Origin: Acidobacteriota bacterium
GTDB lineage: Bacteria; Acidobacteriota; Thermoanaerobaculia; Gp7-AA8
DNA length: 64,000 bases
Reading direction: 5' to 3'
Assembly: GCA_019247495.1 (NCBI GenBank)
Contig: JAFAOU010000018.1
Location: 1,518 to 65,517 of the forward strand
The position numbers and the translations under genes were made by a program. Numbering within the stretch: position 1 is the first letter of the stretch; each line of letters begins with the position of its first letter. Of the stretch, positions 52,238-54,154 are shown piece after piece. The notes beneath the pieces are model-generated. The model saw only the letters and a list, made by a program, of their open reading frames with translations. It made no database searches and had not been told where the DNA came from.

Positions 52238-54154
52238 ATGGCATTGAGACGACAGATCCGGGTAGGTTCGCAATGGATGTACGCGGACGAAGCGCACAAA
52301 GCGCTCCGCGAGGCGTTGCGCGTCATGGAGGACGAGAAAGCCGCCGAGGGACATGGCGGACATCATCAATCCTTCATTCGCCGCTATGTCTTTTCTACCG
52401 ACCATAAATGGATCGGCATCCAATACGGCTTCACCGCGCTTCTTTTCCTCCTCCTCGGCTTTTGTTTGATGATCCTGATGCGCCTGCAGCTCGGCTGGCC
52501 CGGTCAGGCGTTCAGTATTATGAAAGTCCTCGGTGAAAGCCGGGCGCCCGGCGGCGTCCTTTTGCCCGAGGCGTACAACCAGCTCGGCGCGATGCACGGC
52601 ACGATCATGATCTTCTTAGGGATCGTGCCGCTGGCTGTCGGTGCATTTGGCAACTACCTGGTCCCACTGCAGATCGGCGCGCCCGACATGGCCTTTCCCA
52701 AACTGAACATGGCCAGTTACTGGTGCTACTTCCCGGGCGGCCTGATCATGCTGGCCAGTTTCCTCGCGCCCGGGGGCACGGCGCAATCCGGCTGGACATC
52801 CTATCCGCCGCTGTCGGTCATCGCCTCACAAGGGCAGACGTGGTGGCTGATCGGGATGGTGTTCCTGATTACGTCCTCGCTGCTGGGCTCCGTCAATTTC
52901 ATTGTGACGATCATTCAGTTGCGCGCCAAGGGGCTGACGTATATGCGCTTCCCCTTCTTCGTGCACGCGCAGTTCGTTACCTCGTTCCTGCTCCTGCTCG
53001 CGTTCCCTCCGCTCGAGGCCGCCGCGGTGCTGCAGCTCATGGACCGGATCGCGGGAACGAGTTTCTTCCTGCCGAGCGGTCTTGTGGTCAGTGGCCAGGC
53101 GCTTGCGAATGCCGGCGGCGGCAACCCTCTCTTATGGCAGCACCTCTTCTGGTTCCTCGCGCATCCTGAGGTTTACGTTCTGATCCTGCCTGCCATGGGA
53201 ATCGTGGCCGAGATCATCGCGAACAACACGCGCAAGCCGCTCTGGGGCTACAAGTCGATGGTCTTCGCGACCGTCTTTCTTGGATTCATGTCCTTCGTCG
53301 TGTGGGCGCACCACATGTTCCTGACCGGTATGGGCACGACCATCAGCGCCTTCTTCCAGACGACGACGATGATCATCTCGATTCCGTCGGTGATCATTCT
53401 CAGCTCGTTGTTCATTTCACTATGGGGCGGGTCCATACGTTTCAATACGCCGATGTTGTTTGCGCTCGCGTTTCTGCCGATGTTCGGCATTGGCGGGCTG
53501 ACCGGACTGCCCCTCGGCCTCGCTGCCTCCGACATTCATCTGCACGACACGTACTACGTCATCGGCCATTTCCACTATGTCGTGGCGCCGGGAACGATTT
53601 TCGCGATGTTCGCGGGCATTTACTATTGGTTCCCGAAAGCGACCGGCCGCAAGCTGAACGACTTCTGGGGCAAGGTGCACTTCTGGGTGTCGTTTGTCTG
53701 CATCAACGGCATCTTCTTTCCGATGTTCGCGCAGGGGTTGGCGGGCGTCTCGCGCCGGCTTTACGACGGCGGCATGCAGTACGCCCACGCCAAGGAGATT
53801 GCGTCGCAGACGAACCCGTTCATGTCCATCTGCGCGATCGGACTTCTTGCCGCGCAGGTTCCGTTCATTCTGAACTTCTTCTACAACGCAATCGCGGCGG
53901 CAATGGGGCGCCGCGATGAAGGCCTTGGCTCGAATCCCTGGCAGGCCACCACGATGGAATGGACGGCTACGACCTCGCCTCCGCTGGCGCACGGTAATTT
54001 CGAGGTGCTGCCGATGGTCTACCGCGGTCCTTACGAATACAGCGTTCCCGGCGAGACGGCCGAATACATTCCGCAGAACATGCCGTTGGCGGAACCGGCG
54101 CCGCGCGGCGGCAGCCTGTTGCCGGCGACCGCAGTGGCGATGAGGGAGAATTGA
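52238..54154 (+). CDS. ctaD: heme-copper oxidase subunit I (A-type signature)
   Basis: AMHGTIMIF, DMAFPKLN, WFLAHPEVY, WAHHMF, GHFHY. Confidence 0.93.
   Translation: MALRRQIRVGSQWMYADEAHKALREALRVMEDEKAAEGHGGHHQSFIRRYVFSTDHKWIGIQYGFTALLFLLLGFCLMILMRLQLGWPGQAFSIMKVLGESRAPGGVLLPEAYNQLGAMHGTIMIFLGIVPLAVGAFGNYLVPLQIGAPDMAFPKLNMASYWCYFPGGLIMLASFLAPGGTAQSGWTSYPPLSVIASQGQTWWLIGMVFLITSSLLGSVNFIVTIIQLRAKGLTYMRFPFFVHAQFVTSFLLLLAFPPLEAAAVLQLMDRIAGTSFFLPSGLVVSGQALANAGGGNPLLWQHLFWFLAHPEVYVLILPAMGIVAEIIANNTRKPLWGYKSMVFATVFLGFMSFVVWAHHMFLTGMGTTISAFFQTTTMIISIPSVIILSSLFISLWGGSIRFNTPMLFALAFLPMFGIGGLTGLPLGLAASDIHLHDTYYVIGHFHYVVAPGTIFAMFAGIYYWFPKATGRKLNDFWGKVHFWVSFVCINGIFFPMFAQGLAGVSRRLYDGGMQYAHAKEIASQTNPFMSICAIGLLAAQVPFILNFFYNAIAAAMGRRDEGLGSNPWQATTMEWTATTSPPLAHGNFEVLPMVYRGPYEYSVPGETAEYIPQNMPLAEPAPRGGSLLPATAVAMREN

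Follow-up and report, generated by a model that had tools for sequence, protein, structure and literature searches.

How can an A-type haem-copper oxidase deliver protons to its active site when the lysine of its K-channel is missing? The question is raised by the gene of a subunit I (CoxI/CtaD, A1-type, 638 aa) at positions 52238..54154 on the forward strand of a 64,000-nucleotide stretch of DNA from a soil-dwelling Acidobacteriota bacterium of the Thermoanaerobaculia (GenBank assembly GCA_019247495.1, contig JAFAOU010000018.1, positions 1,518 to 65,517). This whole stretch is referred to as the window. The names of nearly identical database proteins likewise point to the Thermoanaerobaculia. 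In model enzymes, the K-pathway supplies the protons for the reduction of the haem a3/CuB site, and lysine mutants are blocked at this step (PMC12901375; PMC6115622). The lysine is treated as indispensable in the A-family because model mutants stop active-site reduction, yet a common lineage does without it. The window gene very probably encodes the catalytic subunit of a functional, conserved A1-type aa3 oxygen reductase that lacks the lysine. We assign a probability of roughly 0.55 to the reading that this is a working A1 aa3 oxidase with a K-pathway rebuilt on an acidic relay.

The lysine position in subunit I

The open reading frame (ORF) scores 456 bits against the Pfam profile hidden Markov model COX1 (PF00115; gathering cut-off 34.8), which places the protein in the haem-copper oxidase superfamily. 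The best chains in a phmmer search of all PDB entries are A-type, namely 1AR1_A of Paracoccus denitrificans (2.4e-122) and 1M56_A of Rhodobacter sphaeroides (3.4e-119). The AlphaFold 2 (AF2) model, with a predicted local distance difference test score (pLDDT) of 89.4, has the A-type fold and superimposes on the R. sphaeroides chain 3DTU_A with a VIA Z of 50.6 and a root-mean-square deviation (rmsd) of 2.1 Å over 520 residues. The haem and CuB ligands H120, H309, H358, H359, H444 and H446 are all present, with His309, His358 and His359 coordinating CuB. The cross-link residue Tyr313 and Glu311 of the HPEVY motif, at the top of the D-channel, assign the protein to the A1 subtype, and the His-Asp pair of the Mg site and the arginine pair are conserved. 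The D-channel consists of D150, N139, N157, N220, S213/214 and E311. Its entrance motif DMAFPKLN (Asp150 to Asn157) lies at 52685..52708 (+), as identified by translation and clade alignment. D150, N139, N157 and N220, which stand for the A1 D-channel residues D132, N121, N139 and N207 of R. sphaeroides, are kept in 30-32 of the 32 members of the clade described below. The preliminary description of the locus had held that the D-channel and the cross-linked tyrosine are intact, and this is indeed the case in the window protein and, as a conserved feature, in the clade.

The helix VIII segment at 53366-53410 (+) reads TMIISIPSVIILSS, and translation and alignment give TMIISIPSVIILSSL as its K-channel segment. 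Residues 337-440 align by phmmer with 1AR1_A and 1M56_A without a gap, at a local identity of about 50%. In this block, the P. denitrificans number equals the window number minus 33. The same offset holds in the preceding block, past a short insert, so that Tyr313 corresponds to Y280, Glu311 to E278 and Ala324 to S291. Ile387, encoded by the codon ATT at 53396-53398, therefore takes the place of K354 of P. denitrificans and K362 of R. sphaeroides, as had been claimed before. Helix VIII of the AF2 model spans residues 367-395 and is free of Lys, Arg, His, Asp and Glu; no other lysine of this helix can stand in for the missing one. Ser384 (53387-53389) matches T351 of P. denitrificans and T359 of R. 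sphaeroides, Ser390 matches S357 and S365, and Ser381 (53378-53380), at the position of R. sphaeroides A356, is specific to the clade.

Two further helices bear on the channel. Helix VI, aligned as HPEVYVLILPAMGIVAE at 53162..53212 (+), carries His309, Glu311, Tyr313, Ala324 and Glu325. Ala324 occupies the K-channel position Ser299 of R. sphaeroides (Ser291 of P. denitrificans), and Glu325 is invariant within the clade. In helix VII, Ser352 (53291..53293, +) stands at Gly319 of P. denitrificans and Gly327 of R. sphaeroides and is a serine in 32/32 clade members. We take this position to be the site at which C-family (cbb3) oxidases have their cross-link tyrosine. Of the canonical A1 K-channel set (K362, T359, S299 and, in subunit II, E101 of R. 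sphaeroides), the lysine is replaced by Ile and S299 by Ala; T359 has become Ser, which retains the hydroxyl, and E101(II) persists as Glu71.

The change is not a matter of data quality. Over 53143-53568, the sequence is matched with zero differences by contigs from an independent metagenome run (X2), and an assembly error is rejected on this ground. A misalignment hiding a lysine was ruled out by the ungapped alignment. Hundreds of relatives share the motif, and the chance that a sequencing or assembly artefact or a misalignment conceals the lysine is next to nil.

The residue pattern around the lost lysine was compared between 32 clade sequences and 47 Lys-bearing outgroup sequences. Position 387 (R. 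sphaeroides K362) is I, L or V in 32/32 clade members and K in 47/47 outgroups. At position 324 (S299), 28/32 clade members have A, G or C, against S in all 47 outgroups. Position 390 (S365) varies among A, S, C and T in the clade and is N in 47/47 outgroups, while position 391 (W366) is L, M or F as opposed to W or Y. Ser381 (A356) is found in every clade sequence and in none of the outgroups (32/32 and 0/47), and Thr or Ser at 389 is likewise universal in the clade (32/32) where the outgroups have F, Y or L. Ser352 is less exclusive, with 14/47 outgroups sharing it. Glu325 (32/32) is replaced by D, E, H, Q or T among the outgroups, and Val385 (32/32) by A, G or S. Position 384 (T359) is Ser in 31/32 clade members and Ser or Thr in 47/47 outgroups. 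Judged from these alignments, the textbook K-pathway has been taken apart in its lower half, whereas its upper half retains hydroxyls and gains others.

Two parts of subunit I lie apart from the channel. Residues 1-45 (52238-52372) form a cytoplasmic N-terminal extension, predicted as a hairpin and a helix with a His-rich HGGHH stretch, which is conserved in Thermoanaerobaculia relatives and missing from more distant clade members. The insert mentioned above, PSGLVVSGQALA, comprises 12 residues (about 279-291; 53072-53110) on the outer side ahead of helix VI and is a small hairpin in the AF2 model. It is found in the aligned clade members and has no counterpart in the aligned solved A-type oxidases.

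Extent of the lineage

The loss of the lysine is a trait of a multi-phylum lineage, the PSV clade, and not a quirk of a single gene. Among the best 150 matches in a search of 1.84 billion cluster representatives, all those above about 50% identity carry IS(I/V)PSV followed by hydrophobic residues. A pattern scan with one genome per species yielded 31 clade loci at 56-78% identity, all without the lysine, and 49 other loci at 48% identity or less, in which the lysine is present except at two separate Lys-less loci (L054 and L079). The motif is likewise free of lysine in all 239 closer relatives collected for the window protein and for a Luteolibacter member. The view that the locus represents a natural variant is borne out by these counts.

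The clade is conserved across at least 8 phylum labels, those implausible for bins of metagenome-assembled genomes (MAGs) being few: Thermoanaerobaculia, Vicinamibacteria, Verrucomicrobiota, Planctomycetota, Neomarinimicrobiota, Hydrogenedentota, Elusimicrobia and Ignavibacteriota. An Elusimicrobia MAG (L028) has the clade motif, as do the cultured Verrucomicrobia Rubritalea marina, Persicirhabdus sediminis, Sulfuriroseicoccus oceanibius and Haloferula sp. At a threshold of E ≤ 1e-190, a clade member occurs in 45/201 sampled Acidobacteriota genomes, a tally that takes in the two unpublished genomes G110 and G213, on which nothing else is based, and in 33/135 genera. Many Verrucomicrobiota carry one as well. 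The clade also has a gene order of its own, I-III-IV-(two small ORFs)-II, as opposed to II-I-III in the outgroups.

In an LG+G4 tree, the PSV clade has a Shimodaira-Hasegawa-like approximate likelihood ratio (SH-aLRT) support of 100 and is sister (94) to another Lys-less clade. This Lys-less superclade is nested among Lys-bearing lineages with at least 5 state changes in the same quick tree, which is weakly rooted on one long B-type branch. The lysine may therefore have been lost secondarily rather than being absent ancestrally, a polarity that is not firmly claimed here.

Some relatives deserve separate mention. In three more distant members of the clade, database representatives at 46-57% identity (P0126, P0129 and P0132), the Asp and Asn residues of the D-channel are also lost, as in GARAMALPRLH, so that both textbook channel signatures would be missing; these proteins keep HPEVY and have long C-terminal membrane extensions. 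Subunit I of the window scores 563.4 bits against the NCBIfam equivalog TIGR02891 (CtaD_CoxA), below the cut-off of 670.75. Several relatives (P0043, P0044, P0400, P0408 and others) are named "cbb3-type cytochrome c oxidase subunit I" by NCBI, although they are A-type, and the misleading names probably arise because such proteins score below this cut-off.

The genome itself encodes three other haem-copper oxidases. A second A1-type oxidase without the lysine, located on contig C137 (subunit I at L085:7824-9836, subunit II at L085:5675-7723), has the motif PTGVQIF with Gln at the lysine position and belongs to a separate clade that includes forms of 830-860 aa. An A2-type oxidase (YSHPAVY) with the lysine is encoded on C25 and a B-type oxidase on C10; the B-type protein forms a long separate branch in the tree.

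Subunit II and a proposed route of the protons

The gene of subunit II (CoxB/CtaC, 260 aa) lies at 55646..56428 (+) and was assigned by Pfam COX2 and by phmmer to 1M56_B; its score against the CoxB model is below the cut-off (112.3 versus 147.7). The protein has two transmembrane (TM) helices and a CuA domain and is devoid of a haem c domain. Its second TM helix (TM2) contains the segment EAGVAVIE (55856..55879, +), in which, by phmmer alignment to 1M56_B, Glu71 matches the entrance residue E101(II) of R. sphaeroides and Glu78 matches P108(II). Glu78 is found in 28/28 clade loci and 120/120 closer relatives but in 0/50 Lys-bearing outgroups, where Pro or a small residue takes its place. Among the clade loci, 22/28 keep Glu71, as do 120/120 relatives. 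The AF2 model of subunit II, of moderate quality (pLDDT 75.7), has helices at residues 17-48 and 65-94, and Glu78 is residue 14 of the 30-residue TM2, that is, in mid-helix. Because a distance of seven residues equals two helical turns, Glu78 should share a face of the helix with Glu71 and lie about 10 Å further in, roughly level with the lost lysine, as judged from helix geometry and the model structures.

The sister clade (L090-L095, from the order of Puniceicoccaceae bacterium K14) has its own acidic residue. In five of six genomes, helix VIII carries a Glu one residue before the lost lysine (P-I/V-A/G-E-M/L). The sixth, from a member of the Puniceicoccaceae, lacks this residue and has a Glu in TM2 of subunit II instead. 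A His directly follows the conserved proline of TM2 in 6/6. With Glu78(II) in the PSV clade and a helix VIII or TM2 Glu in the sister clade, the Lys-less superclade would appear to retain a buried carboxylate near the vacated site, in either subunit.

The preferred reading, a rebuilt K-pathway with an acidic relay, can be formulated as follows. Protons for the haem a3/CuB site would use the customary entrance at Glu71(II) and Glu325(I). Glu78(II), whose buried carboxylate lies two helix turns above Glu71, would act as a protonatable relay and pass them on via Ser384 and Ser381 to Tyr313. All other protons, both those consumed in the chemistry and those pumped, would travel through the intact D-channel. 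That Glu78(II) faces the K-cavity and serves as the relay is a possibility to which we give somewhat less than an even chance. Tentatively, and with a little more reserve, it may be generalised that the K-pathway lysine was replaced in trans by a buried TM2 glutamate of subunit II, and in the sister clade by the helix VIII glutamate, an anionic instead of a cationic relay. That the entrance is still in use is suggested by the retention of Glu71, which has been lost in the Gln-for-Lys oxidase of the same genome. The ba3 and cbb3 oxidases deliver K-pathway protons without a lysine. More broadly, B- and C-family enzymes work with a K-channel free of lysine (PMC11214002).

Several points weigh against this reading. 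The placement of Glu71 and Glu78 on one face follows from nothing but the helix periodicity (+7). The loss of the lysine and the gain of the glutamate represent one or two phylogenetic events, and their correlation is therefore not statistically independent. A buried Glu, with a charge opposite to that of Lys, could also have a different role, for example in the packing of subunits or in contacts to the small subunits. No RNA run was found to hold the sequence. Finally, with three other haem-copper oxidases in the genome, the window oxidase need not be efficient.

On a different, unlikely view, the K-pathway may be dead, with all protons passing through the D-channel or with a slow, tolerated reduction of the active site, and Glu78(II) would be structural. 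The loss of both the lysine and Ser299, the hydrophobic character of lower helix VIII at 385-388, the full conservation of the D-channel and the availability of other oxidases to the organism would all fit. The variation of P0126, P0129 and P0132 at D-channel positions also points to relaxed channel constraints in the lineage. However, K-pathway mutants of model enzymes block haem a3 reduction despite an intact D-channel (PMC12901375). Moreover, the retention of Glu71(II), Glu325(I) and Ser384 and the gain of Ser381, Ser352 and the hydroxyl of Thr or Ser at 389 would be unexpected for an abandoned channel.

It is rather improbable that the protons take a C-family-like "KC" route along helix VII, formed by Ser352 and its neighbours, in which subunit II would not be involved. 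The invariance of Ser352 in the clade, at what is presumably the position of the cbb3 cross-link tyrosine, speaks for this route, which Degli Esposti et al. proposed for Lys-less A1 oxidases, and their published table assigns the same residue pattern to the KC-channel (PMC8239418). Yet only one of the four KC positions (Ser352) could be confidently mapped and is conserved, position 345 being variable. Ser at 352 also occurs in 14 of the 47 Lys-bearing outgroups, and the route leaves the invariant Glu78(II) unexplained. Still less can be said for another main chemistry, such as NO reduction or peroxidase-type turnover, or for a decaying paralogue, both of which we regard as highly improbable. 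Lysine mutants of model enzymes do retain the oxidative half-reaction (PMC12901375), and the preliminary description had proposed assays of NO and O2 reduction. Against this stand the conservation of the cross-link Tyr, the three CuB histidines, CuA, the His-Asp of the Mg site and the arginine pair, the strong conservation across the phylum labels and among the Acidobacteriota genomes counted above, and the presence of the haem A genes within the operon. Since the cross-link Tyr is kept, there is no signature of a nitric oxide reductase (NOR). The cNOR, qNOR, eNOR, sNOR, gNOR and nNOR families, with features according to PMC11214002, were rejected as candidates on the basis of the conserved Tyr, the three CuB histidines and the presence of CuA.

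Gene neighbourhood and related oxidases

The oxidase genes belong to a co-directional cluster in the order 4Fe-4S protein, HEAT-repeat protein, Rieske protein, split cytochrome b, multihaem cytochrome c, lipoprotein, I, III, IV, two small ORFs, II, CtaA and CtaB. Upstream of subunit I and in the same direction (+) lie the genes of the Rieske protein (45356-45928), the split cytochrome b (45968-46753 and 46769-47992) and a multihaem cytochrome c of 1119 aa (48009-51368). They are followed at 51388..52218 (+) by the gene of a putative lipoprotein with the lipobox LSIAC, an H...C-x2-H-x2-M motif of amicyanin-like spacing and, by profile search, a C-terminal CarboxypepD_reg domain. This gene stands upstream of subunit I in many clade loci. 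From the motif, its product may be a blue-copper electron donor; no cupredoxin match was obtained in Pfam or NCBIfam, even at lax thresholds. Gene order suggests that the oxidase is probably fed by the Rieske/cytochrome b complex via the multihaem cytochrome and/or the putative copper lipoprotein.

Downstream on the same strand follow subunit III (54151..54777; Pfam COX3) and subunit IV (COX4_pro, 54790..55164), the latter scoring 37.0 against a TIGR02229 cut-off of 37.25. A 66-aa ORF with two apparent TM helices (55164..55364, +) begins with an ATG that shares one base with the stop codon of subunit IV. The next ORF (55361..55624, +), whose ATG overlaps the preceding stop by 4 nucleotides, encodes an 87-aa membrane protein with ACPVCYG (CxxC) followed by a TM helix. 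It matched no Pfam or NCBIfam family, and its homologues occupy the same place between subunits IV and II in 17 clade loci. Both small proteins may be extra subunits or copper-handling factors. Behind subunit II, the cluster continues with haem A synthase CtaA (56432-57412, +; Pfam COX15-CtaA) and haem O synthase CtaB (57409-58293, +; Pfam UbiA). Upstream of the respiratory cluster, the reverse strand carries at 39017-40501 (-) a gene for a 494-aa protein with an N-terminal TIR_2 domain and DUF4062, possibly a defence gene.

The CuA loop of subunit II, CAQLC at 56303..56317 (+), has Gln where most A-type oxidases have the Glu ligand of Mg, as had been noted earlier. The form C[ASG]QLC is found clade-wide, and Gln also occurs in some Lys-bearing outgroups.

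The lineage would permit a direct test of what the lysine contributes, be it proton relay, charge compensation or gating, and of whether a carboxylate from a neighbouring subunit can replace it. If the reading is true, an A-family pump with an anionic proton relay for the reductive phase would amount to a natural double-mutant experiment on the essentiality of the lysine. As cultured carriers exist and the Glu78 hypothesis is at hand, the question is directly testable. Literature searches found no biochemical study of a clade member.

At 42-43% identity, the window enzyme has the fold (Z about 50) of the canonical A1 aa3 oxidases of R. sphaeroides (1M56/2GSM/3DTU) and P. denitrificans (1AR1/1QLE). 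It shares with them the metal ligands, the cross-link Tyr, the HPEVY Glu, the D-channel, the His-Asp of the Mg site, the CuA ligands and the entrance Glu of subunit II. It differs in subunit I by K362 to Ile, S299 to Ala, W366 to Leu, the 12-residue insert before helix VI and the N-terminal extension, in subunit II by P108 to Glu and by Gln for the CuA-loop Glu, and in the gene order I-III-IV-x-x-II. The B-family ba3 oxidase of Thermus thermophilus has a Lys-free K-channel analogue made of Ser, Thr and Tyr with a subunit II Glu at the entrance, and its CuA loop, CNQYC, also contains Gln. Unlike ba3, the window enzyme belongs to the A-family by sequence, its D-channel is complete, the HPEVY Glu is present, and a hydrophobic residue rather than Thr occupies the lysine-equivalent position. 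B-family membership was ruled out by the D-channel and the HPEVY Glu. The Gln-for-Lys A1 oxidase on C137 is likewise an HPEVY A1 enzyme without the lysine, but it belongs to a separate lineage and differs in its caa3-type subunit II, which lacks both the entrance Glu and the buried Glu.

Lys-less oxidases of this kind have already been catalogued from sequence. An A1 "KC channel" class with Elusimicrobia, Ca. Calescamantes and Methylacidiphilaceae was tabulated in 2021 by Degli Esposti et al. (PMC8239418, Suppl. Table S1 and the table for Fig. S7). Elusimicrobia GWA2_38_7 is listed there with Y-A-I-S-C-E at the P. denitrificans positions 280/291/354/351/357/292. With Y-A-I-S-S-E at the same positions, the window protein fits the tabulated pattern Y-A/S-I-S-C/S-E. 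The tabulation contains no Acidobacteriota, and the window adds a member from the Thermoanaerobaculia. For COX2, the tables track the entrance Glu only (E78 in P. denitrificans numbering), and the searchable text and supplements of that paper yielded no mention of a second buried COX2 Glu or of the order I-III-IV-x-x-II. The same paper discusses K-channel variants and the repeated losses needed under one evolutionary scenario. A 2020 preprint by Degli Esposti et al. (10.1101/2020.03.01.968255) describes COX1 proteins of acidophilic Fe2+ oxidisers and relatives (Acidithiobacillus, Thioclava and others) in which the lysine is replaced by Ile or other residues and the COX2 entrance Glu is lost. 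These enzymes resemble the window oxidase in the hydrophobic residue at the lysine position and the preserved D-channel. They differ from it by extra N-terminal TM helices and by the loss of the entrance Glu, which the window clade retains and to which it adds a second Glu. With its member from the Thermoanaerobaculia, the window also offers the testable hypothesis that the neighbouring subunit compensates for the missing lysine.

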